Source of the DNA: Thermostichus sp. DRC_bins_24
GTDB lineage: Bacteria > Cyanobacteriota > Cyanobacteriia > Thermostichales > Thermostichaceae
Assembly: GCA_039794845.1 (NCBI GenBank)
Contig: JAUQVK010000035.1
Span: 10,014-74,013 of the forward strand
DNA length: 64,000 nt
Reading direction: 5' to 3'
A model generated the notes under the pieces. It was not told the DNA's origin and searched no databases. It saw only the letters and a list, made by a program, of their open reading frames with translations. The stretch's first letter is position 1, and the number at the start of each line of letters is the position of its first letter. Of this stretch, positions 1 through 64,000 are shown in pieces. The position numbers were made by a program, and so were the translations under genes.

Positions 1-2330
1 CGCCTGCGGATCAAACCCTGTTGCGCTTGGTGGCTGAACAGCTGATCTTGGCCATCACCCATTCCCGCCTCTACGAAAAAACTCAGCAGCAGGCCCGCCG
101 CGAGACCCTGTTGAATGAGTTGACTGCTCAGATTCGCACCTCTTTGGAGCCGCGCCAGGTGTTGTACTCCATCGTCCGGTCTTTGGAGGCAGCTTTGCAG
201 TTGGATGGGGGTGCACAGGGGTCGCCGGACGCCAGCAGCCGGGGATCCCGTGACCGCTGTGAGATTATCCTCTACCGCTCGCAGCCCAGTGTGCGGCAGG
301 ACTGGATCGAGCATTGCCACTCCTTTTTGCGCTGGATGGATACCCGACCCCTGGCGGATGGAACCCCCTTTGTAGAGGGGCTGGCCCAGATGCGGCAGCC
401 GGTGGTTTGGTCGGAGGGGATCTTTGTGCGTGGCTCAATGCAGGAGGATCCCCTCAAGGAAGTGCCGATTCCCTTTCATTCCTTCCGGGATCCGCGGCTG
501 GTACTGCATACTCCCCAGCTGGGGCAAGCGGGGGATGGTGCTCCGCCCCTTGCCGAGCAAGAACGCTTTTTGGAGGCCCGTTTGGAGTTTTGCCTCATGC
601 ACCCCGATACCTACGAGCTGTTGCGGCGGGGGGAACCGTTTCTCCTCAAGGATGCCCGGCGGGATCCCCTCTACCCGGATTTGGGCGAAGAGGTAACGGA
701 GCGGCTGCGCTACCTTTTCCAGGTGTTGGCCATTCGCAGCATGGCCCTGATCCCCATTCGTCAGGAGGGGGAGTTGATCGGCACAATTGCCCTGATCGCC
801 GATCCGCACCCGCGGGAGTTTCGCCCGGAGGAGCTGTCCTTGGCCATGGCGGTGGCGGAACAGGCGGGGATCGCCCTCAAACAGGCGCAGCTCTACGAAC
901 AAACCCGCATCTCTGCCCAACGGGAAAGCCTACTGCGTCAGATTGCCCAGCGCCTCAGTGGCACCTACGATCCTCAGCAGGTGGTGCAAATCGCCCTCGA
1001 GGGTATGGCGGATGCTCTGCAAATTAGCCAGTGTGACTTTATCGCCCTGCAGGATCCCTGTGCTGCGGGGTTGCCCGGTCGGAGGACACAGGATCAAGCC
1101 GCTGCGGATCCTTTGCCCCATTGGCCAACTCCCTCCGAACCCCTGAAGGTTCTACAAGAATATCGCCGTCAACCGGGGATCCCTTCTCATTTGGGGCAGA
1201 CGGTGCCTCCTGATTTGAATTGGCTGCTCCTGCTCAACTGCTATGGCAGCCGCGATACCCTCTTGATTCAGGATGTGAACCAGTTCCCGTTGCCCGCCCA
1301 AACCCGACGAAATCTGTTGCAGTCGGGGATCCGCTCTTTGTTGTGTGTGCCCATGACCACCGATGCCGACCAGATCGCGGGGGTACTCTGTGCCTTTACT
1401 CCACCGGAAGCCGCGGATGCCGGCGGTACCCTCACCCGTTCCGAAGGAACGGGCTTTTCCGAAAGCGAGACGGATTTGGTGAAGGCCTTGGCGGATATCG
1501 CAGCGGTGGCTTTGCAACGGGCCTTGTTTTACGAACGGGTGCGGCGGCAGGAAGCAACGGCAGCGGCCTTGCGGGGCCTCACGGAGGGGCGAGAGGCAGA
1601 AAGTCGGCGTTTGGCAGCGGATTTGCACGATCAAACCCTGGCGGATCTGGGGGCCTTGTCTCGCCAAATTCAGGAGCTTTCCTGCGATCCCACCATCGGT
1701 CAGTCGGGGCAGGATCGGTTGCAGGCCATGAGTGCCCAACTGCGGGAGACCATCGCTGAGCTGCGCGGAATTGTAGAAGACTTGCAGCCGACGGCAATGC
1801 GGGCCTTTAACCTCGGCCCCGCCCTGCGCAGCCTTCTGGAACGTGCCGCCCAACGCTCCGCCCATCCCCTTGTAACCCGCTTTGATGATCGGGCCAATGG
1901 GTTGCTGTCCCGTCTTAGCCCCGCTTGCCAGAGCAGCATTTTCCGCATCGTGCAAGAAGCCCTGAACAACATCGTCAAACATGCCGGGGCGCAGCGGATC
2001 GACATCACCATTCAGCCGAAGGCACTGGGCACCCGTCCGTCCGGGGGGTACGACTCAGGGGACGGTTCCTTGCCCGACCCTCGAGATCCCTACACCCACC
2101 TGGAGTTGAAGATCATCGACAATGGCCGGGGCATGCCGCAAGGTGACCCAGAGCTTGGGTCGCAAGGGGAGCCCAACCCAGAAACCCCCGGGCCGCGCAG
2201 TCATGGGCATGGCCTTCTAAATATGCGCTACCGGGCCGAGTTGATTGGGGCGACAATCGCCTGGCGTACTCGCCGCTTTGGCAGTGGCACTGTGGTGGAG
2301 TTGCTGATCCCTTTGCCCCCACCCCCCTGA
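1..2330 (+). CDS. Multi-GAF sensor histidine kinase, HisKA_3/HATPase_c type (5'-truncated by the window edge)
   Basis: Frame is open from the window start. Repeated GAF-end motifs (LAMAVAEQAGIALKQAQLYEQ; LADIAAVALQRALFYE), H-box LAADLHDQ, N-box FRIVQEALNNIVKHA, DNGRG and GHGLLNMRYRAELIGA. Confidence 0.9.
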   Translation, partial: PADQTLLRLVAEQLILAITHSRLYEKTQQQARRETLLNELTAQIRTSLEPRQVLYSIVRSLEAALQLDGGAQGSPDASSRGSRDRCEIILYRSQPSVRQDWIEHCHSFLRWMDTRPLADGTPFVEGLAQMRQPVVWSEGIFVRGSMQEDPLKEVPIPFHSFRDPRLVLHTPQLGQAGDGAPPLAEQERFLEARLEFCLMHPDTYELLRRGEPFLLKDARRDPLYPDLGEEVTERLRYLFQVLAIRSMALIPIRQEGELIGTIALIADPHPREFRPEELSLAMAVAEQAGIALKQAQLYEQTRISAQRESLLRQIAQRLSGTYDPQQVVQIALEGMADALQISQCDFIALQDPCAAGLPGRRTQDQAAADPLPHWPTPSEPLKVLQEYRRQPGIPSHLGQTVPPDLNWLLLLNCYGSRDTLLIQDVNQFPLPAQTRRNLLQSGIRSLLCVPMTTDADQIAGVLCAFTPPEAADAGGTLTRSEGTGFSESETDLVKALADIAAVALQRALFYERVRRQEATAAALRGLTEGREAESRRLAADLHDQTLADLGALSRQIQELSCDPTIGQSGQDRLQAMSAQLRETIAELRGIVEDLQPTAMRAFNLGPALRSLLERAAQRSAHPLVTRFDDRANGLLSRLSPACQSSIFRIVQEALNNIVKHAGAQRIDITIQPKALGTRPSGGYDSGDGSLPDPRDPYTHLELKIIDNGRGMPQGDPELGSQGEPNPETPGPRSHGHGLLNMRYRAELIGATIAWRTRRFGSGTVVELLIPLPPPP

Positions 2331-2480
2331 GGGATCCGTTGCCCACAAAGTAGCCGACGCATCATTCCCCGTTCCAACATGATTTATAGTCATTGAAGCT
2401 CTGGGGATCCCTGACCCGGCAAGCCCCAAAGCGAGGAGCACCTGCCATCTGTCAATGCCGGGTTGTGAGGAGAAGCATCT

Positions 2481-3551
2481 GTGACCTACCGTGTAACTTT
2501 GATCCCTGGGGATGGTATCGGCCCGGAAGTGGCCAAAGCGATGACCACTGTACTGGATGCTACCGGGATCCCGTTTGAATGGATCCCGGTGGATGCGGGG
2601 GTGGATGTGATCGAAAAATACGGCACCCCCTTGCCGCCGCAGGTGTTGGAGTCGATTCGAGAAACCCAACTGGCGATCAAAGGCCCGATTGGCACGCCTG
2701 TGGGCACGGGTTTTCGCTCGGTAAATGTGGCGATTCGCAAGGAGCTGGATCTGTATGCCAACCTGCGCCCCGCCAAATCCATGATCGGGGTGAAAAGCCC
2801 TTTCCAAAACATCGACCTGGTGGTGGTGCGGGAAAACACCGAGGATCTCTACGCGGGCATTGAATTTGAGCACGGCACGCCCGAAGCCATCCAGGCGCGG
2901 GAACAGATGATGCAACTGTCTGGCAAACCCATCCGCGAGGGATCCGCCATCGGCATTAAACCGATCTCAGATTTTGGCAGCCGCCGCATTGTGAAATTTG
3001 CCTTCGACTATGCTCGACAGAATGGCCGCAAAAAGGTGACGGCTGTTCACAAGGCCAACATCATGAAGTTCACCGATGGCCTGTTTCTGGAGGTGGCGCG
3101 GGATGTGGCCAAGGAGTATCCCGACATCGAATTCGAGGATCGCATCGTGGATAACATGTGCATGCAGTTGATGCAGAAGCCGGAACTCTACGATGTGTTG
3201 GTGCTAACCAATCTCTACGGTGACATCATTTCCGATTTGTGCGCGGGCATGATCGGCGGCTTGGGGGTGGCGCCTGGGGCCAATATCGGCGATGGCATGG
3301 CGGTGTTCGAGGCGATCCATGGCTCTGCACCGAAATATGCCGGCCAAAATAAGGTGAACCCGGTGGCTTTGATCCTTTCGGGGGTGATGATGTTGCGCTA
3401 CCTCGGGGAACGTGAGGCTGCCGAAAAGGTGGAGGCGGCAGTTCAGGCGGTGATTGCAGAGGGCAAGCGGGTCACCTACGATCTGGCCAAAGGGGATCCC
3501 GTCGGTACCCAAGAGATGGCCGAAGCAATCGCGGAGCGGGTAGCCGCTTAG
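2481..3551 (+). CDS. Isocitrate/isopropylmalate dehydrogenase family protein, probably NAD-type isocitrate dehydrogenase
   Basis: [57 protein letters not shown] motifs; GTG start after AGGAG. Confidence 0.9.
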
Positions 3552-3616
3552 CCATAGCCGCCAAAGTTCCGGGTTGGGTTTGTTAGGCTGGGATCCCTAG
3601 GGATCCGGTTGTACCC

Positions 3617-4090
3617 ATGTTGAGTCCTGCGTTTGCCGATGACTTCTCCTCTAGCTTGAAGATCGGCCAAGTGGCGCTGGCGGCGGGTTTGCCCGTGCGG
3701 ACGGTGCGCTACTACGAGTCGATCGGCTTGCTAGACCCGACGGTGGAACGGGCGGAGTCTAACTATCGCTTATTTGCCCCGGCGGTACTGGGGCGTTTGG
3801 CCTTTATCCGCCGTTGCCAAAGCTTGGGCCTGAGCCTGGAGGAGATCCGCGACATTCTCCGGATCCATGACCAAGGGGAACTGCCCTGCCAAGACCTTCG
3901 GGATCATCTGCAGGACAAGCTCCAAGAGATCGAACAGCGGATTGCCGATCTGCAAACCCTGAAGGGCCAAATTCAAAGCCTACTCTCGGACTGGCGCATC
4001 CCGCAGGGATCCCCGGCTGAAAACACCGTCATCTGCCCGATTTTGCAAAGCCCCGTTCGCGCCAGCGAGACGGAGTTCTTCGCCAGCTAG
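3617..4090 (+). CDS. MerR-family heavy-metal-responsive transcriptional regulator
   Basis: LKIGQVA...TVRYYESIGLL...NYRLF HTH; LGLSLEEIRDIL; Cys residues (LPC, VICPIL). Confidence 0.9.
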   Translation: MLSPAFADDFSSSLKIGQVALAAGLPVRTVRYYESIGLLDPTVERAESNYRLFAPAVLGRLAFIRRCQSLGLSLEEIRDILRIHDQGELPCQDLRDHLQDKLQEIEQRIADLQTLKGQIQSLLSDWRIPQGSPAENTVICPILQSPVRASETEFFAS

Positions 4091-4195
4091 GTTTGGGGGC
4101 GCGCCATCTTTGAGTTAAGCATCATTAGTTAAGCATCATTTCAGCTTCTATTTTTTGGTGCTGAACCAAGGTTGAAAGGTCAAAAGAAGTACGAT

Positions 4196-4290
4196 TGTGT
4201 TTCTTAGGGTTGTTCTATTACTGCTCCCTCTGGTCGCCCGCTGCCTCACCACCCCCTAACCCCTTCGGGGTATAGGCGGAGCACTGCAAC
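4196..4290. repeat. Dispersed ~95 bp repeat related to 61827-61932
   Basis: Both sites share TGTTTCTTAG-N10/11-TTACTGCTCCCTC..TCGC.CGCTGC..CACCCCC(T)AACC..TAT.GGCG.AG in the same order. Confidence 0.6.
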
Positions 4291-4432
4291 GGATCTTGGT
4301 AGAGTTATTAGAAACAAATGCCTAACCACGCTCCTGCACGCCGACCGCTGGGTTTGTCGGTTACGGGCTCAAGGAGATCCATAGCAGGTGATGGACAACG
4401 TTGACCCTCCGGGTCGTGCGGAGCACGGCCAG

Positions 4433-6307
4433 CTACTCCACCGTCACCGATTTCGCCAAATTGCGGGGTTGATCCACATCCGCCCCCCGACGCAAAGCCA
4501 TCGCATAAGAGAACAACTGTAACGGGATCGTATTCAAGATCGCCGACAGCAGTGGTGTGGTGCTGGGAACTTCGATGATGTGGTCGGCTTTTTCCCGCAC
4601 CTGCGTGTCTTCGGGATTGATCAGGGCGATCACCCGTCCCCCCCGTGCCCTCACCTGTTCGATGTTGGAGAGCATTTTTTCGTAGACGGGATCCCGGGTG
4701 GCAATACAGACCACAGGCATGCGCTCGTCGATGAGGGCAATCGGCCCGTGTTTCATTTCTCCCGCCGGGTAGCCTTCTGCGTGGATGTAGCTGATCTCTT
4801 TCATTTTCAGGGCCCCTTCAAGGGCAATCGGCGCATTCACCCAGCGGCCCAGGTAGAGCATATCCGTAACGTGGTGGTACTGATCCGCCAAGTAGTCGTA
4901 GAGGGTGGTGTCTTTCAGAAGCAGGCTAATTTTGCCCGGTAGCTCGATCACCGATTGCAGGTGGGTTTGTATTTGGGCCGGGGTGAGGATCCCTTTTGCT
5001 TGGGCGATCTGTAAAGCCAACAGGTACCCCGCCGTCAACATGCCCGTAAACACTTTGGTGGAGGCAACGGCGATCTCTGGCCCTGAGTGAATGTAGATTA
5101 CCCCCCCATCCGCCAGGCGGCTGGCCTGGGATCCGATGGCGTTCAAAATACCCAATGTTGGGATCCCTTGCTCACGAGCCTCCGCCATGGCTGCCAAGGT
5201 ATCGACGGTCTCTCCCGACTGGGTCAGGGCCAGCAACAGGCTGGTTGGCTCCTCCGCATGGTTCGTCTGAACAGGCCGTAAGACAGGGTTGCGGTAGCGA
5301 AACTCCGAGGCATAGTCCACCTCCACACGGGTACGGGCAAGGCTCTCGATGAAATATTTGATTACCAGGCAGGCGTGCCAAGCGGTGCCACAGGCCACGG
5401 CATAAATGTGCTCCACCTTGGCCAGTTGCGCCTCCGAAAGGGCTAGCCCCTCCAGCGTGACCCGACCATGCTCAAGATCCACCCGGCCTCGCAGGGTATC
5501 GGTGGTGGTGCGGGGTTGCTCGAAGATCTCCTTTTGCATGAAATGCTTGTAGCCGCCCTTGGCTGCGGAGATCGGATCCCAGGCAACGGTGGTGCTGCTT
5601 TTGCGCAGTTCTTCGCCGGTAATGCGCTGGTAACGTACGCTCGATTCGGTAAGGATGGCCATTTCCCCATCTTCCAAAAACACCACCTTGCGGGTATGGC
5701 GCACAATGGCGGGCAGATCCGAAGCCACGAAGTTTTCCCCTTCCCCTTCCCCAACCACTACAGCTCCGGCATTGCCCAAGCGAGCGGCGATCAGCCGATC
5801 CGGCGATTCCCGATCCAGGGCTACCACGGCATTGCCCCCGCGCAGTTGCCTCATCACCTGGCCGAAGGCCGCCTCAAAGGATCCCAGTTCTTCGGTGTAG
5901 AGGCCGAGCAGATGGGCGATCACTTCCGTATCGGTTTGGGAACGAAACGGGATCCCACGCGCCAGCAGGTGTTCTTTCAGCTCCAGGTAGTTCTCAACAA
6001 TGCCGTTTTGGATCACCACAATGCGGCCCCGCTCATCGCAGTGGGGGTGGGCATTCTCCTCGGTAACACCGCCATGGGTGGCCCAGCGGGTATGGCCGAT
6101 CCCCAATTTGGCCGTGGGCATATCGGCGGTGAGCTTCACCAGCAGATTGTGCAGTTTTCCGGTGGAACGGGCGATTTTCAGCCCCTGCTCAGGATCGACA
6201 GTGGCAATTCCGGCGGAGTCGTAGCCTCGATATTCTAGGGTGCGCAAGCCCTCCAACAGGATCGGAGCAGCCCACTGAAAGCCGACATAGCCGACAATGC
6301 CGCACAT
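4433..6307 (-). CDS. glmS: Glutamine--fructose-6-phosphate aminotransferase
   Basis: MCGIVG N-terminus, EYRGYDSAG, GHTRWATHG, QSGET, EGALKMKEISYIHAEG, C-terminal DQPRNLAKSVTVE. Confidence 0.98.
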   Translation of the reverse strand: MCGIVGYVGFQWAAPILLEGLRTLEYRGYDSAGIATVDPEQGLKIARSTGKLHNLLVKLTADMPTAKLGIGHTRWATHGGVTEENAHPHCDERGRIVVIQNGIVENYLELKEHLLARGIPFRSQTDTEVIAHLLGLYTEELGSFEAAFGQVMRQLRGGNAVVALDRESPDRLIAARLGNAGAVVVGEGEGENFVASDLPAIVRHTRKVVFLEDGEMAILTESSVRYQRITGEELRKSSTTVAWDPISAAKGGYKHFMQKEIFEQPRTTTDTLRGRVDLEHGRVTLEGLALSEAQLAKVEHIYAVACGTAWHACLVIKYFIESLARTRVEVDYASEFRYRNPVLRPVQTNHAEEPTSLLLALTQSGETVDTLAAMAEAREQGIPTLGILNAIGSQASRLADGGVIYIHSGPEIAVASTKVFTGMLTAGYLLALQIAQAKGILTPAQIQTHLQSVIELPGKISLLLKDTTLYDYLADQYHHVTDMLYLGRWVNAPIALEGALKMKEISYIHAEGYPAGEMKHGPIALIDERMPVVCIATRDPVYEKMLSNIEQVRARGGRVIALINPEDTQVREKADHIIEVPSTTPLLSAILNTIPLQLFSYAMALRRGADVDQPRNLAKSVTVE

Positions 6308-32104: not shown

Positions 32105-34405
32105 ATGAGACACCGCTGGGATCTGTTGCCCACTCCTCCCCAATTCAATCTGGAGATGAGCCGCGAATATGGTAAGTATGGCGCCAAGTTGCTGGCCTTG
32201 CGCGGGTTACACACCCAGGAGCAGGTACGGGCCTTCTTGGATCCCGACTACTACTCCCCCACCCCGGCGGGATCCCTACCGGATATGGATCGGGCGGTGG
32301 CACGGCTGTTGCGGGCGCGGGAACGGGGAGAGGCCATTTGCATTTGGGGGGATTTCGACTGCGATGGGGTTACCAGCACTGCCCTGTTGCTGTCGGCGCT
32401 GCAACCTTTGGGCTTCCGGGTTGAGTTCACCATTCCCCTGCGCAGCGGAGAAGGGCATGGGCTGAACCCACAACGGCTGCAACAGGTGTTGGCCCGAGGC
32501 TCTCAGGTGATTGTGACGGTGGATTGTGGCGTGGGCAATGCTGCCGAAATTGCCATGGCCCAGGCCGAGGGGGTGGATGTGATCGTGACGGATCATCACA
32601 CGCTGCCGGATCCCTTACCTGCGGCCCATGCGGTGGTGAACCCTCTCCGTTTGCCTGCTGAGCACCCGTTGCGCTTTTTGCCGGGGGTGGGGGTGGCCTA
32701 CAAGTTGGCAGAAGCCCTCTATGGGGTGCTCGGGATCCCGAATGTAGAGCAGCATCTGGACTTGGTAGCGGTGGGGATCGTGGCGGATGTAGCGGTGCTG
32801 CAGCGGGAGTGTCGGTATTTGGTGCAACGGGGCCTGCCGATTTTGGCCAACACCCAACGCTTGGGGCTACGGGCCCTGCTGGAGCAGGAGATGAGCCAGA
32901 CGAAGCGGGAGCTGTCTGCCCAGGATATTGGTTTTCGCATTGCCCCGAAGTTAAACGCGATTGGGCGACTGGAGGATGCCCGTCTGGCGGTGGAGCTGCT
33001 GACCACGGCAGATCCAATGCGGGCTCAGGAGCTGGTGCAACGCTTTGTCGCCACCAACGAAGAGCGCAAACACCTCACCCAGCAGGTGGTGCAGGAGGCC
33101 AGCCAGCAGGTGGACAGTCTGGATTTGGCGCAGGAACGGGCGATTGTCTTGGCGGGATCCGGCTGGAGCCAAGGGGTGGTGGGGATTGCGGCGGGACGGC
33201 TGGTGGAGCAGTACGGCTGCCCGACGGTGTTGATCGCCAAGGATGAAGGGGCGGGCCGGGGCTACGGATCGGGCCGTTCCATTCCGGGGGTGAGCTTGGT
33301 GGAGGCGATCGAGGCGGTGCGTCCGTTGTTGTTGGGGGGAGGCGGACACCCGATGGCGGCAGGGATCCAAGTGGAACTGTCTTGTTTATCGGCTTTGCAA
33401 CTGGCTTTGCGGCGGGAGTTGGCAGCTCGAGTGGGCCCGGATCAACACACCCGTGCCCTAACACTGGAGATCGTCATCGATCTGGCCCTGTTGGAGTCCC
33501 AAGGGCGGGATCCGGTGGCCGAACTGGATGAGCTCTATCGGCAACTGCAGCCTCTGCAACCCTTTGGGCATGGCAACCCCATCCCGACGGTGGCGCTGAT
33601 GAATTTTCGCCCCAGCCGTTCCAACCCGAAAGCCTCCAAAAATGGGCAGCACCTTAGCTTTCAACTGACCGGCCCGCAGGGATCCCGCACCTTGTGGTTC
33701 TGGCGCGAGGGGGAACAATTGGCCACCCTGGGAAAGCTCCCCGCTTTGGATATTGCCCTGCACCTAGAAGCCAGCGACTGGGGCCCTTGGCAGGGAAAAG
33801 TGCTGGCGGTACGGCCCTCCGGCGATTGGCACATTCCCGTGGTGTCCTCCAGAAGCCTGCAGGTGGAGGATCGGCGACAAAACCCTCTTCCCACCCCGGT
33901 GAGCGCTGCCAGCCGTTACGACGGACAGATCCCACCCCCAGCAGCAGAACTTCTTTTGACGCGCTGGCCTTGGCTACCGACAGACTTGGCACACCTGCTG
34001 CAGCAGGTGCAACCCCAAAAGCTGATCCTGGCGGCTTCCGGCCATCGCTGGGAGCAGATCCCCACCCAAATCACCCAGCTGATGCAGCTGTGGCAGGCGG
34101 GACAACGGGATCCCTTGCAACTGTCTGAGGCGACGGGCTTGCCGCCGGAATGGTTGGCAGACTTGCCTGGTTCTGAGCCAATCGCCCCCCTCCTGATGGG
34201 TCGCATTCAAGAGTCGCAAGCGTTTCATCGCTGGTTGGATGAGGCCAGCCCCGCCGAGATCCGCCAACTGTGTCAACGGCTGCTGCGACCGGATCCCATT
34301 CCAGAGGTTGTTTCTATGGGACAAGACCTCCCAGAAGAGTCTTCATTCATCCCTGGGGCAAAACCGGGATCCCCCTCTTACAGCCCTTTCGCTAGTCATA
34401 TGTAA
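32105..34405 (+). CDS. recJ: Single-stranded DNA exonuclease RecJ
   Basis: GDFDCDG, TVDCG, TDHH, PGVGVAYKL, ADV, PKLNAIGRL, GSGRS, GGH..AAG, PFGHGNP. Confidence 0.95.
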   Translation: MRHRWDLLPTPPQFNLEMSREYGKYGAKLLALRGLHTQEQVRAFLDPDYYSPTPAGSLPDMDRAVARLLRARERGEAICIWGDFDCDGVTSTALLLSALQPLGFRVEFTIPLRSGEGHGLNPQRLQQVLARGSQVIVTVDCGVGNAAEIAMAQAEGVDVIVTDHHTLPDPLPAAHAVVNPLRLPAEHPLRFLPGVGVAYKLAEALYGVLGIPNVEQHLDLVAVGIVADVAVLQRECRYLVQRGLPILANTQRLGLRALLEQEMSQTKRELSAQDIGFRIAPKLNAIGRLEDARLAVELLTTADPMRAQELVQRFVATNEERKHLTQQVVQEASQQVDSLDLAQERAIVLAGSGWSQGVVGIAAGRLVEQYGCPTVLIAKDEGAGRGYGSGRSIPGVSLVEAIEAVRPLLLGGGGHPMAAGIQVELSCLSALQLALRRELAARVGPDQHTRALTLEIVIDLALLESQGRDPVAELDELYRQLQPLQPFGHGNPIPTVALMNFRPSRSNPKASKNGQHLSFQLTGPQGSRTLWFWREGEQLATLGKLPALDIALHLEASDWGPWQGKVLAVRPSGDWHIPVVSSRSLQVEDRRQNPLPTPVSAASRYDGQIPPPAAELLLTRWPWLPTDLAHLLQQVQPQKLILAASGHRWEQIPTQITQLMQLWQAGQRDPLQLSEATGLPPEWLADLPGSEPIAPLLMGRIQESQAFHRWLDEASPAEIRQLCQRLLRPDPIPEVVSMGQDLPEESSFIPGAKPGSPSYSPFASHM

Positions 34406-34513
34406 CAGCTATGGAGGTTGAAACCCACCTCCTGGAGGGGTGGTGCTCCGCACCTCGCGTAGCGAGAGGAGGAAGCATAAACCCTGCTGTAGAAAACCCG
34501 CGCAAGGGCTGTA
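34379..34513. mobile_element. MITE, 131 bp between TA dinucleotides, imperfect terminal inverted repeats
   Basis: TA-CAGCCCTTTCGC (34379-34392) ... GCGCAAGGGCTG-TA (34500-34513), 11/12 TIR match; no coding capacity; second copy at 9463-9655. Confidence 0.8.
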
Positions 34514-34721
34514 ATCCTGAAATAGCGACAAAAAAGCCCAAAACAGTCTAGAAAAATGTTGTCCATCCCTCGAAATGGGATCCCTTTTGAGTACCCTAGA
34601 TACAACATCCTCAGGACTCCGTTCCACTGATGCAATAGGAAATACCCGATTTCCCGAAATGGGAAGCTTGTCCATTGCAAAGATCAAATCAACCCTATTT
34701 TCTCCGCCCCTTTGTGAACGA

Positions 34722-60672: not shown

Positions 60673-61937
60673 TTGACATCCACTCCCAGCAACCCTAGCG
60701 GGTATGCAGGGAGATTCCCTGAGTCGCCCCAAAGAGTTCCTGCTGCTACGCACGACCTGCGGTCTACAACGCCAGCCAGCCAGCCTGTTCGCGCCAGCGT
60801 GCTGGAGGCACTGTGACCCCAGCCCCCGCCGCCCCGACTCCACAGGCATTTTCAGTTCCCCGTTGCCCACGGGTACAGATTACTTGAGCCGCTGCCACAT
60901 CCCGGGCCTTGACTGACCCGCACTCAGGACAGTGGTGGATCCGAGTTGAGAGGTCTTTTCTGACCTCCGCCCCGCAATCCGGGCACTCCTGAGACGTACC
61001 TCTCGGATCAACCTTGGCGTAATACACATCCCGCTTCCAGCACACCCACGGCAAAATCCGGTTCACAAATTGCCCCAGCCCCGCATCGAGGATGTGCTTG
61101 CCCAACATCCCCTTGGCCATGAGGCGAAAGTCCAAGTCCTCCACAAACAGCATCCCTGCACTGTCGCAGAGACGATGGGCCAGCTTGAAATGCCAGTCCT
61201 TGCGGGTATCCGTGAGGCGCTGGTGTACCCTGCCAATCTTCTTCTGGAGTTTGTGCCAGTTGTTCGACCCCTGGCGCTTGGTCTTGAGCCTGCGGTGCAG
61301 CAATTATGCCTTTGGCAGGCTACGCCAACAGCTTGCGGTGCAGCTCATTGAAAAAGCGGGGTCGCTTGACTTGCAGATCGCTCGTGATGCAGTTCTTCAG
61401 CATCTGCGGGAAAACGAAGCTGCGCATCCGATTTGGCTTTTTGAACCGTGGCAACCCTAACCGTTTCAACCGCCACGACTCCCACGCTGCCTCCAGGCTA
61501 CGAATAACCTGTTGAAGCACCTGGGCGTTCGCGGTCTTGAGTCTAGGGAAATCGGCCTTTGCCGCTGTCAGTGACTGACACTGCCGAGCATAAGAGGGAA
61601 AGGGCGCATCCACCGGCAGGATAAACTCCTGCCGAATGGAACAGGCATTGATGGCGCACTTGCGGGAGTCCAGCCAGTCCTTGCGTTCCCGCAGGGCAAA
61701 GTTCCAGACCTTGCGGCACACCTCAAGAATGTGCTCAATCTCTGAAACCTGCGCCTCGGTTGGCTCTAGCTTAAATTCCCACGTCATATTTAGCGTAAAC
61801 CGATTGTAGTCTAAGAAATCAGCATATGTTTCTTAGAGGCACACCATTTACTGCTCCCTCCGATCGCTCGCTGCTGCTGCGCTCGTCCTCCGGCCTACAC
61901 CCCCAACCAAGCCTATCGGCGCAGATTGAACTGTAGT
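60673..61937 (-). mobile_element. IS200/IS605-family element, tnpB only, decayed; left boundary inferred
   Basis: Minus-strand right end GAATCTCCC...GGGAGTGGATGTCAA ends at 60673; tnpB remnants; TCTAAGAAA-N10-TTTCTTAGA hairpin at 61810-61837; TTGAT on the minus strand at 61942-61938 as a possible target motif. Confidence 0.8.
60764..61787 (-). pseudogene. tnpB: TnpB (RNA-guided endonuclease) pseudogene, split and internally deleted
   Basis: 5' part WEFKLEPT..CRKVWNFALRERKDW..PRFKK; 3' part FVEDL, TSQECPDCG, HHCPECG, RDVAAAQVI. Stop and frameshift at 61304-61328; no RuvC-I GID.G segment. Confidence 0.9.
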
Positions 61938-62008: not shown

Positions 62009-64000
62009 ATGAACTCACCCGAACGCAACGGGGCTTTATTAATTGGGCAGCAGCTCACCTGGTGGTGCAAGCTCTCGGGCCTTGTCGGATCCCCACTGTT
62101 GGGGGTGTTGCTGTGGGCAGGGGTGGCAGAGGCCGCCACCATCACAGTGAATAGCACCGACCAAGGGCCTGTTAAAGGTGCATGCACGCTACGGGATGCC
62201 ATCACAGCCGCGAACACGAATGCAACTGTAAATGGCTGCGCGGCAGGGGATGCTGGGCTTGATACCATCCAGTTTGCGAATAGTTTGATTGGCAGCACCA
62301 TTTCTCTGACGACAGCGTTACCCGCAATTACTGAAAATGTGACCATTGAGGTAGCCGGGGCTGCTCCTGACGACCGGGTAACCGTAGAACGAGATACAAC
62401 GGCCCTCGACTTTCGCATCTTCACGGTTAACGCGGGTTTAGAAGCCAGTTTTGCCAACCTCACCATCAGCAATGGGCGGGCCACAGCGTCCTTCCCTAAT
62501 GATTCAGGCGGCGGGATCTTTGGGGACGCTGGCAGCACCATCACCGTTACCAACAGCACCCTCAGCGGCAATAGCGCAAGCTCCAATGGCGGCGGGATCT
62601 GGGCCAATGTCACCGCAACAGTGAGCAACAGCACCCTCAGCGGCAATAGCGCAAACCTTGGGGGCGGAATCTGGGCCGGTGTCACCGCGACGGTAAGCAA
62701 CAGCACCCTCAGCGGCAATAGCGCAAACCTTGGGGGCGGAATCTGGGCCGGTGTCACCGCGACGGTAAGCAACAGCACCCTCAGTGGCAATAGCGCAAGC
62801 TCCAATGGCGGCGGGATCTGGGCCAATGTCACCGCAACAGTGAGCAACAGCACCCTCAGCGGCAATAGCGCAAACCTTGGGGGCGGAATCTGGGCCGGTG
62901 TCACCGCGACGGTAAGCAACAGCACCCTCAGTGGCAATAGCGCAAACCTTGGGGGCGGGATCTTTACCGCTACCGCGACAGTGAGCAACAGCACCCTCAG
63001 TGGCAATAGCGCAAACCTTGGGGGCGGGATCTTTGCCTATAAAGCAACGGTGAGCAACAGCACCCTCAGTGGCAATAGCGCAAACCTTGGGGGCGGGATC
63101 TTTGCCTACACCGCAACGGTGAGCAGCAGCACCCTCAGCGGCAATAGCACAGACTCCGGCGGCGGCGGGATCTTTGCCACCACAGTGACAGTGAGCGACA
63201 GCATCCTCAGCGGCAATAGCGCAAGCTCCAATGGCGGCGGGATCTGGGCCAATGTCACCGCAACGGTGAGCAGCAGCACCCTCAGCGGCAATAGCGCAGG
63301 ATTCGACGGCGGCGGGATCTATGCCTATAACACCGCAACGGTGAGCAACAGCACCCTCAGCGGCAATAGCGCAAGCTCCAATGGCGGCGGGATCTATGCC
63401 TATGCAGCGATAGTGAGCAACAGCACCCTCAGCGGCAATAGCGCAGGATTCGACGGCGGCGGGATCTTTGCCTATGACGCCGCGACAGTAAACAACACCA
63501 TCATTGCGGGCAACACCGCTGCCGCCGGAGCTGAGGAATGCTCGGGCTCCATCACTGGAAGCAACAATGTCTTTGGGGTGAATGGCAATGCCGGCGGTTG
63601 TCCCGTGCCCGGCAATATCGTCCCAACCGGGGCACTCTCCACCCTTTTGGAGACTACCCTCGCTGCCAATGGCACCACCATTTTGGCTGGGGATCCCAAC
63701 GCAATGGGGGGGCAGCAACCGGTCTTGACCCTAGCCCTGGTGGCCAATAGCCCAGCCCTTGAAGCGGCAGACCCTGCCATTTGTGCCGCTTCCCCCATCA
63801 ATAACCTCGACCAAAGAGGAGTAACTCGTCCTCAGCCGGCCAGCACCATCTGTGACATCGGCGCTTTTGAAAGCTCTCTCACTCCCGAGCCCACGCCCAC
63901 TCCCGAACCGAGCCCCACGCCCACTCCCGAACCGAGCCCCACGCCCACTCCCGAACCGAGCCCCACGCCCACTCCCGCACCGAGCCCCCGCCCCCCTCCC
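62009..64000 (+). CDS. Secreted CSLREA-domain, parallel beta-helix, choice-of-anchor-Q surface protein (3'-truncated; absent from the ORF track)
   Basis: GAGGAG then ATG 62009; signal ...WAGVAEA/ATITVNST; CTLRDAITAAN; 13 S(T/I)LSGNS..GGGI repeats; DQRGVTRPQ...CDIGAFE; Pro/Thr linker running to the window end. Confidence 0.9.
   Translation, partial: MNSPERNGALLIGQQLTWWCKLSGLVGSPLLGVLLWAGVAEAATITVNSTDQGPVKGACTLRDAITAANTNATVNGCAAGDAGLDTIQFANSLIGSTISLTTALPAITENVTIEVAGAAPDDRVTVERDTTALDFRIFTVNAGLEASFANLTISNGRATASFPNDSGGGIFGDAGSTITVTNSTLSGNSASSNGGGIWANVTATVSNSTLSGNSANLGGGIWAGVTATVSNSTLSGNSANLGGGIWAGVTATVSNSTLSGNSASSNGGGIWANVTATVSNSTLSGNSANLGGGIWAGVTATVSNSTLSGNSANLGGGIFTATATVSNSTLSGNSANLGGGIFAYKATVSNSTLSGNSANLGGGIFAYTATVSSSTLSGNSTDSGGGGIFATTVTVSDSILSGNSASSNGGGIWANVTATVSSSTLSGNSAGFDGGGIYAYNTATVSNSTLSGNSASSNGGGIYAYAAIVSNSTLSGNSAGFDGGGIFAYDAATVNNTIIAGNTAAAGAEECSGSITGSNNVFGVNGNAGGCPVPGNIVPTGALSTLLETTLAANGTTILAGDPNAMGGQQPVLTLALVANSPALEAADPAICAASPINNLDQRGVTRPQPASTICDIGAFESSLTPEPTPTPEPSPTPTPEPSPTPTPEPSPTPTPAPSPRPPP
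62555..63495 (+). repeat. Coding tandem repeat, 13 units of 69-75 bp
   Basis: AGCA(C/T)CCTCAG(C/T)GGCAATAGC starts at 62555, 62630, 62702, 62774, 62849, 62921, 62990, 63059, 63128, 63200, 63275, 63350 and 63422. Confidence 0.95.
63881..64000 (+). repeat. 24-bp coding tandem repeat (PTPTPEPS linker)
   Basis: About four copies of CCCACGCCCACTCCCGAACCGAGC, last one degenerate, continuing to the window edge. Confidence 0.9.

Follow-up and report, generated by a model that had tools for sequence, protein, structure and literature searches.

Double-hairpin micro-elements of 21 to 28 nucleotides in a Thermostichus genome are newly found members of the small dispersed repeats

Very short, non-coding DNA elements, each consisting of two adjacent hairpins with tails of 1-2 nt, are dispersed through the genome of Thermostichus sp. 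DRC_bins_24 (G000, the genome under study). They form a real, active-looking family, and they are newly found members of the small dispersed repeats (SDRs), whose mobility has been an open question since 2008. The subfamilies measure about 21, 22, 24 and 27-28 nt. We describe them in the window, i.e., the whole stretch of 64,000 nucleotides that was analyzed (G000:C35:10014-74013), as well as in the rest of G000 and in related genomes. As the best explanation, and with somewhat less than even confidence, we propose that single-stranded DNA (ssDNA) mini-hairpin donors are pasted into the chromosome by a trans-acting, hairpin-recognizing putative enzyme, most plausibly of the HUH nick-and-join kind.

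Results

Anatomy and structural constraint of the micro-elements

A first-pass annotation had grouped six sequences into one family of units composed of a hairpin and a GCG(T/G)AGC tail, and had noted that 60740-60766 and 61871-61897 are identical at 22/27 positions. All six sequences are present at their positions and the identity is correct. Five of them are indeed micro-elements, but the sixth (4259-4283) is a hairpin that natively belongs to a left end of the IS200/IS605 type. The motif occurs far above chance, as a hairpin of at least 5 bp lies exactly 2 nt upstream of 75 of the 1105 GCG[GT]AGC sites in G000, compared to 1-8 for eight control tails. However, the GCG[GT]AGC tail is itself a hairpin in its own right.

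A catalogue based on structure plus motif contained 220 copies in G000, compared to 3 in a Markov-5 control genome, so that copy number clearly exceeds the chance expectation. Merging of tandem arrays and of copies with common flanks reduced these 220 copies to approximately 94 sites; both tandem and nested copies are present. Generic double hairpins showed no overall enrichment in G000 (3678 versus 4206 in the Markov control), the enrichment being confined to specific loop pairs.

The stems vary while their pairing is kept, as the annotation had stated. When one hairpin was used to select the copies and the other was tested, the paired fraction was 0.71, compared to 0.44 after shuffling (maximum 0.54, 52 distinct stems). 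The reciprocal test gave 0.73 versus 0.53 (maximum 0.63, 55 stems), and the observed pairing was reached by 0/2000 shuffles. DNA folding with ViennaRNA, which has no mini-hairpin bonus and often preferred alternative folds, was excluded as support. Rfam at gathering score yielded 0 matches over the window.

The loops obey the rule for DNA mini-hairpins

Among the 64 possible triloops, GNA alone forms a stable DNA mini-hairpin, and GNNA tetraloops such as GTTA do so as well; these structures resist nucleases, and their RNA versions are far less stable (PMC13037366). The loops of the micro-elements follow this DNA rule (GNA, GNNA) and not the GNRA rule of RNA. Counted over copies that are not independent, the tetraloops of the first hairpin had the form G..A in 60/63 cases and GNRA in 2/63, and the triloops of the second hairpin were GNA in 80/112. 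In the 27-nt type the first loop was the complement of GNA in 65/97 copies (background about 5% per strand), and a stable loop lies near the 3' end of each strand. The conserved loops found here, including GCGGAGC, GCGTAGC and GCGTTAGC, correspond to the mini-hairpin motifs d(GCGNAGC) and d(GCGNNAGC) (PMC13037366). The DNA mini-hairpins treated in the relevant sections of that source belong to phage origins and N4 promoters, not to insertion elements, and some stems in our family (AC/GT closing) lie outside the set tested there.

A loop rule of the DNA type suggests that the elements pass through a single-stranded DNA stage. It also bears on the alternative in which reverse transcription of an RNA copy takes place at a nick, with the CYR flank of the target (see below) as primer. 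The one-sided flank consensus and the 5'-truncated copies do resemble primed synthesis. However, GNRA loops are avoided in favor of the DNA rule, there is no bias between sense and antisense copies, and no RVT_1 match was found in the 99.9%-complete genome. We therefore consider reverse transcription improbable.

Precise inserts in an IS605-type element

The right part of the window contains an IS605-type element with the following features.

60673-61915: IS605-type element with a tnpB pseudogene
60673..60763 (-): right end of the element and host of one insert; paralogs and relatives are homologous as far as 60673
60745..60766 (-): double-hairpin micro-element in the right end, 22 nt replacing 1 (net 21)
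60764..61787 (-): tnpB pseudogene (Pfam OrfB_IS605, HTH_OrfB_IS605, Cas12f1-like_TNB; alignment to the intact C16 paralog)
60788..60812 (+): micro-element at the tnpB 3' end, 25 nt replacing 1 (net 24)
61306..61328 (-): SDR5-type micro-element that frameshifts tnpB, 23 nt replacing 1 (net 22), with a 21-nt core at 61308-61328; empty alleles exist
61790..61915 (-): left-end remnant of the element, distal part missing (alignment with C16, C44 and relatives; right limit approximate)
61876..61897 (-): degenerate member of the 21-nt subfamily, located in the left end

Compared to the intact paralog C16, the tnpB pseudogene has a 219-bp internal deletion after 61376, which takes out the GIDVG motif, as well as a frameshift insert and a lost stop codon. 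Relative to C16 and to the relatives, the element contains three precise inserts of net 21, 24 and 22 nt, each with one altered junction base and without target duplication. The unit at 60745..60766 is missing in C16, in four relative loci and in a 97%-identical contig of run X2, and variants occupy the same position in three other paralogs. The unit at 60788..60812, which the annotation had overlooked, is likewise missing in C16, the relatives and the X2 contig, and is present in paralog C25. Comparison with the X2 contig (14 differences in 532 bases; X2 and the possible source run belong to one study), in which both the 21-nt and the 24-nt insert are missing, reveals the same change at the junction. 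The degenerate unit at 61876..61897 is shared with C16 and absent from the left-end copy C44.

The similarity between 60740-60766 and 61871-61897 on either side of tnpB is real, but it is not that of terminal repeats. Each of the two IS ends received an insert of its own, and 5 of the 27 bases compared are common target sequence. The 21-nt subfamily was found only in IS605-type ends, in six copies (60745-60766 and 61876-61897 in the window; C16, C41, C37 and C13 elsewhere in G000), with similar target sequences at left and right ends. The IS remnant directly adjoins a long gene, the start of which occupies 62009-64000 and which has repeats of the Chlamydia-PMP and beta-helix kinds.

Copies in a MITE, an attC-like site and host genes

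The remaining features of the window are given below.

537..563 (-): 27-nt micro-element, in frame in a GAF/histidine-kinase gene (Pfam; empty ortholog in G004)
4056..4079 (+): 24-nt micro-element, 3'-terminal in a gene of the MerR family (catalogue match)
4200..4303 (-): IS200/IS605-type left-end remnant including the 4259-4283 hairpin, colinear with and 83-94% identical to left ends of relatives
4320..4433 (+): attC-like site, host DNA (core boxes only: pattern scan and one G004 homolog)
4401..4427 (+): micro-element of the 27-nt subfamily at the attC-like right core; tandem arrays of this unit occur elsewhere
34379..34513 (unstranded): TA-flanked MITE (host DNA) bounded by terminal inverted repeats
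34442..34468 (-): 27-nt micro-element at a MITE hot spot (empty 108-bp copy at C99:5576-5683 versus the 135-bp window copy)

The MITE has approximately 105 copies in G000; among 105 scored, 26 had none of four insert types. The empty 108-bp copy is otherwise near-identical to the window copy, and copies with inserts went on multiplying. The MITE has two hot spots with different micro-elements, both nested and tandem, which provide a natural record of insertion order. A degenerate unit of the 24-nt type lies 100 bp from the MITE, near the start of an sbcC-like ORF (about 34613-34636, minus strand).

The two copies in host genes (537-563 and 4056-4079) had also been overlooked, and they limit the earlier claim that all copies lie in or beside mobile DNA. 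At 4056..4079 the orthologs diverge, without a clean empty site. Reads over window positions 200-4800, where cover was patchy outside the possible source run, revealed no empty allele. The hairpin at 4259-4283 was rejected as a micro-element, since it is colinear with the IS200/IS605-type left ends of relatives; in other copies this native hairpin serves as an insert target. The attC-like site behind this remnant has no cassette gene, and its G004 homolog is without the insert at 4401..4427.

A copy in an attC-like core, together with left junctions that read G^TT or G^AT, would suit a site-specific recombinase, be it of the tyrosine class or another (integron integrase, IS110 type), acting across a 1-2-nt core, and both IS110 fragments and a broken integron integrase are present in G000. 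Against this, TIGR02249 scored above its cut-off in 4/46 genomes, which include neither any of the five SDR5-richest genomes nor G006 or G008, and the only positive genome in the family of genus g41 is without an SDR5 match. The micro-elements are also too short for two integrase boxes. The integron integrase was therefore rejected as the mover, as it does not co-occur with the elements, and a recombinase of any of these types is highly improbable. Nor are the units integron cassettes, given that they lack a two-box attC and co-occurrence with IntI. The integron-integrase-like gene of G000 (C45:4777-5466) is broken by one stop; integrases above the TIGR02249 cut-off were seen in G004, G005 (split) and G010.

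Empty alleles and indel lengths

The annotation had proposed a search for empty sites in relatives. These were found, with net inserts of 21, 22, 24 and 27 nt, the empty alleles being mostly orthologs of 70-93% identity and not direct ancestors. Unlike MITEs and classical IS, the 21-24-nt units showed no target-site duplication in filled/empty pairs; many 27-nt copies have AT at both ends and are ambiguous in this regard. When G000 was compared to G004 (2.80 of about 3.49 Mb of G004 covered), 36 of the 142 indels of 12-60 nt measured exactly 24 nt. The mini-hairpin motif was present in 16 of these 36, compared to 4/36 empty-site controls. The other 20 had no scored motif, and some of them are duplications of palindromic form or pairs of hairpins that have diverged further. 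Net 22- and 26-nt inserts also occur, and 18-nt inserts were in surplus in G000 in the same comparison (12 versus 1). Two 18-nt in-frame inserts (G000:C80 about 1354; L169 about 3590) are 5'-truncated units, comprising the second hairpin and a few upstream bases.

Target sites and replacement of a junction base

The target consensus depends on the subfamily: CYR^AD for one 24-nt subfamily, ^AT for the 27-nt subfamily and GCG^ATCGC for SDR5. An exact scan for the 24-nt subfamily gave at least 124 loci, corresponding to at least 104 distinct sites. Among the 104 sites listed, position -3 is occupied by C in 99, position -2 by Y in 100, position -1 by G in 74 and position +1 by T in 79; position +2 is C in none of them. 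The signal falls to 0.2 bit at -4, and it also holds for antisense inserts. The idea that the target is the element's own 3' end was rejected, because it fits the GTCC/GGCC types only.

Landing often overwrites one target base, as is best seen in this 24-nt subfamily. For 21 of the 104 listed sites an empty ortholog could be aligned; it had A at +1 in 17/21, and +1 differed in 19/21 filled/empty comparisons. After correction (one tandem artefact removed, three pairs fitting pure insertion in a shifted register), +1 was replaced in 15/20, compared to a background of 17%. The shares of the reading frames fit a replacement model (logL -72) better than pure insertion (-92), the replacement fit still being imperfect. 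Selection inflates the replacement share, because in the two frames that occur most often a pure insertion would introduce a stop codon. In the remaining frames +1 was T in 6/6 non-tandem sites, and in 39/49 sites among those left unassigned (57 of the 104 listed sites have no assignable frame). Over all subfamilies, 38 filled/empty pairs had mismatches at 53/228 positions within 3 nt of the junction versus 180/1216 at greater distance (p=0.002 in the best register); no such excess was seen in 108 unrelated indels. This modest all-subfamily excess, and the 27-nt subfamily, in which +1 changed in only 3/16 pairs, count against our explanation.

The main rival to our explanation requires no dedicated enzyme. 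Nuclease-resistant hairpin oligonucleotides would anneal at replication forks or repair gaps, or a polymerase would switch templates to a copy already present, and the host's own replication and repair would thereby spread the units, as in SPDIR, where ssDNA integrates at microhomologies and events rise on loss of ssDNA exonucleases (10.1101/2023.11.22.568220). Such host-driven capture is consistent with the overwritten flank bases, the inserts with net lengths of 22 and 26 nt, the truncated ones of 18 nt, the clustering of sites (see below) and a slight excess of common left flanks (5.59 versus 5.25+/-0.13 nt). SPDIR microindels, as described in that source, share the proposed ssDNA donor and the overwriting of target bases; however, they are variable one-off products, whereas we found fixed repeated units with a target consensus. 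We consider this rival possible, if doubtful.

Genomic distribution

The 94 sites comprise 45 in predicted CDS, 31 in single-copy intergenic DNA and 18 in repeated DNA. The CDS calls come from a home-made gene model, with one CDS site being a tnpB fragment and one locus counted on both strands; some CDS sites near gene starts may precede the true start, and several of the intergenic sites are decayed MITEs. Repeated DNA had approximately 297 sites per Mb, single-copy intergenic DNA 54 and CDS 16. The anticipated enrichment in repeated DNA is thus borne out, at 5-fold over single-copy intergenic DNA for repeated non-coding DNA (p=3e-7). By contrast, the claim that no copy lies in a housekeeping CDS does not hold, as the host genes include orthologs of panC-cmk and menE. 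Among the 27 ortholog stretches scanned, the G004 orthologs of host genes further encode sulfite reductase, a cation/H+ antiporter subunit, a UbiH-family hydroxylase and an Slr1796-type factor. The deficit in CDS probably reflects purifying selection, with multiples of three surviving in genes.

Sites are clustered both in G000 (11 neighbors within 3 kb versus 4.4 expected, p=0.003) and in G004 (12 versus 3.3 expected, three of the 12 being array remnants). A 1600-aa gene without an NCBIfam match at 1e-25 contains three catalogued units in G000 (C63:4503-9296), and its G004 counterpart (L102:141-5009) contains four units at other positions. The exact 24-nt and 27-nt patterns gave 0 matches in viral contigs. 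The 27-nt pattern gave 0 matches in metagenome contigs, a set outside which near records possibly lie.

According to the annotation, the units might parasitize or silence structured mobile DNA or RNA. The 5-fold density in repeated non-coding DNA, four inserts within 1.3 kb of the IS605 element and the two MITE hot spots appear to favor units that are aimed at such DNA for the benefit of the host. However, 45/94 sites lie in CDS, in no preferred orientation (24 sense versus 21 antisense), and MITE copies with inserts kept multiplying. The window tnpB is also dead through its 219-bp deletion, and left-end inserts are tolerated by the C16 element, whose tnpB is intact. Much of the excess can be put down to relaxed selection on DNA that is already dead. 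Silencing is an unlikely function, and targeting or silencing for host benefit is the least probable of all explanations considered here.

Kinship to small dispersed repeats

SDRs in general are dispersed units of 21-27 nt whose structure is kept by compensatory changes and which are nested in minitransposons and in each other. The micro-elements of G000 show the same traits: dispersed 21-27-nt units with empty alleles, compensatory structure, and nesting in minitransposons and in each other. The suspected kinship thus stands, in that these are structure-constrained, very small insertion elements with empty sites in paralogs and relatives.

SDR5 is a 21-nt unit of unknown function (PMC13756078) that inserts between bases 3 and 4 of HIP1 (PMC4390886). 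The core at 61308-61328 occurs as a 21-nt insert in GCGATCGC in 128/163 copies from the five genomes that represent genus g41, and a 21-nt insert of the Nostoc plasmid NZ_CP117771.1 matches it at 19/21 positions. A second Nostoc plasmid match has the left HIP1 half only. Among 301 genomes of the phylum the core is present in 17, and in 14/35 of one family, that of genus g41. Judged by the features compared here, the 61306 unit matches SDR5 as it has been described. To this extent the novelty of this unit, which the annotation had made conditional on its differing from described SDR families, is lost. Its net insert is 22 and not 21 nt, because the junction bases differ. The two SDR5-type copies in G000 are not in HIP1; the top palindromic octamer of this genome is GGGATCCC (4573 occurrences), which has been described as the prime palindrome of thermophilic Synechococcus OS-A/B (PMC4390886).

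According to PMC5861425, SDRs were not found outside Nostocaceae. The present elements are a range extension and not a structural difference. Their resemblance to SDR and SDR5 of Nostocaceae, as described in PMC4390886, PMC5861425 and PMC13756078, lies in the 21-nt unit and the insertion of relatives of the window core between HIP1 bases 3 and 4. They differ in that the host is outside Nostocaceae, the dominant units measure 24 and 27 nt, and GGGATCCC takes the place of HIP1. The 24-nt architecture is also found in the family of genus g41 (35 matches versus 4 in the control, 5 genomes). The 24-nt pattern has 5-167 copies in 11/11 genus relatives of G000, and 0-1 in other genera of its family; among the matches listed are Thermostichus-type Synechococcus, one Thermosynechococcus and one Gloeomargaritales.

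Discussion

An enzyme that reads hairpins in trans fits best, because the ends are fixed, a 3+2-base target signal is subfamily-specific, the loops are of the DNA type and there is no duplication. A short single-stranded donor would travel shielded by its mini-hairpin loops. The putative hairpin-recognizing enzyme, most plausibly of the HUH nick-and-join class, would paste it in without target duplication, often overwriting one target base. Against this explanation, the characterized transposases of the HUH class require two ends and leave all target bases in place when they insert, and the two 5'-truncated 18-nt inserts suit polymerase copying. A mover gene was not found in G000; its sole Y1 HUH gene is a frameshifted TnpA, and the 3 kb on either side of it contain no catalogued element.

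The authors of PMC3116915 suggest that the REP/REPIN model with its RAYT may bear on SDRs. REP/REPIN sequences resemble our elements as short non-autonomous hairpin DNA. In contrast to REPINs, the elements are single 24-27-nt units and not doublets, and many copies lie in frame within genes; a RAYT-like gene flanked by units was not found in G000.

A further-reaching possibility, which we regard as unlikely, is that SDRs are the cargo of an undescribed ssDNA insertion chemistry. A protein would read two mini-hairpins, pick a subfamily-specific target of 4-8 bases, write an oligonucleotide of 22-28 bases and remove one base, all without a duplication, an RNA or extended homology. If so, SDRs would be the smallest enzyme-mobilized DNA known and a natural writer of short sequences.

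The genus provides a defined donor (25 nt), target (CYR^AD), scar (+1 replaced) and structural rule (mini-hairpin loops). These junction, target and loop rules make SDR mobility testable in a plasmid trap assay or by protein pull-down. For the organism, the elements divide IS and MITE families into sub-lineages and lengthen many host proteins by eight or nine residues.
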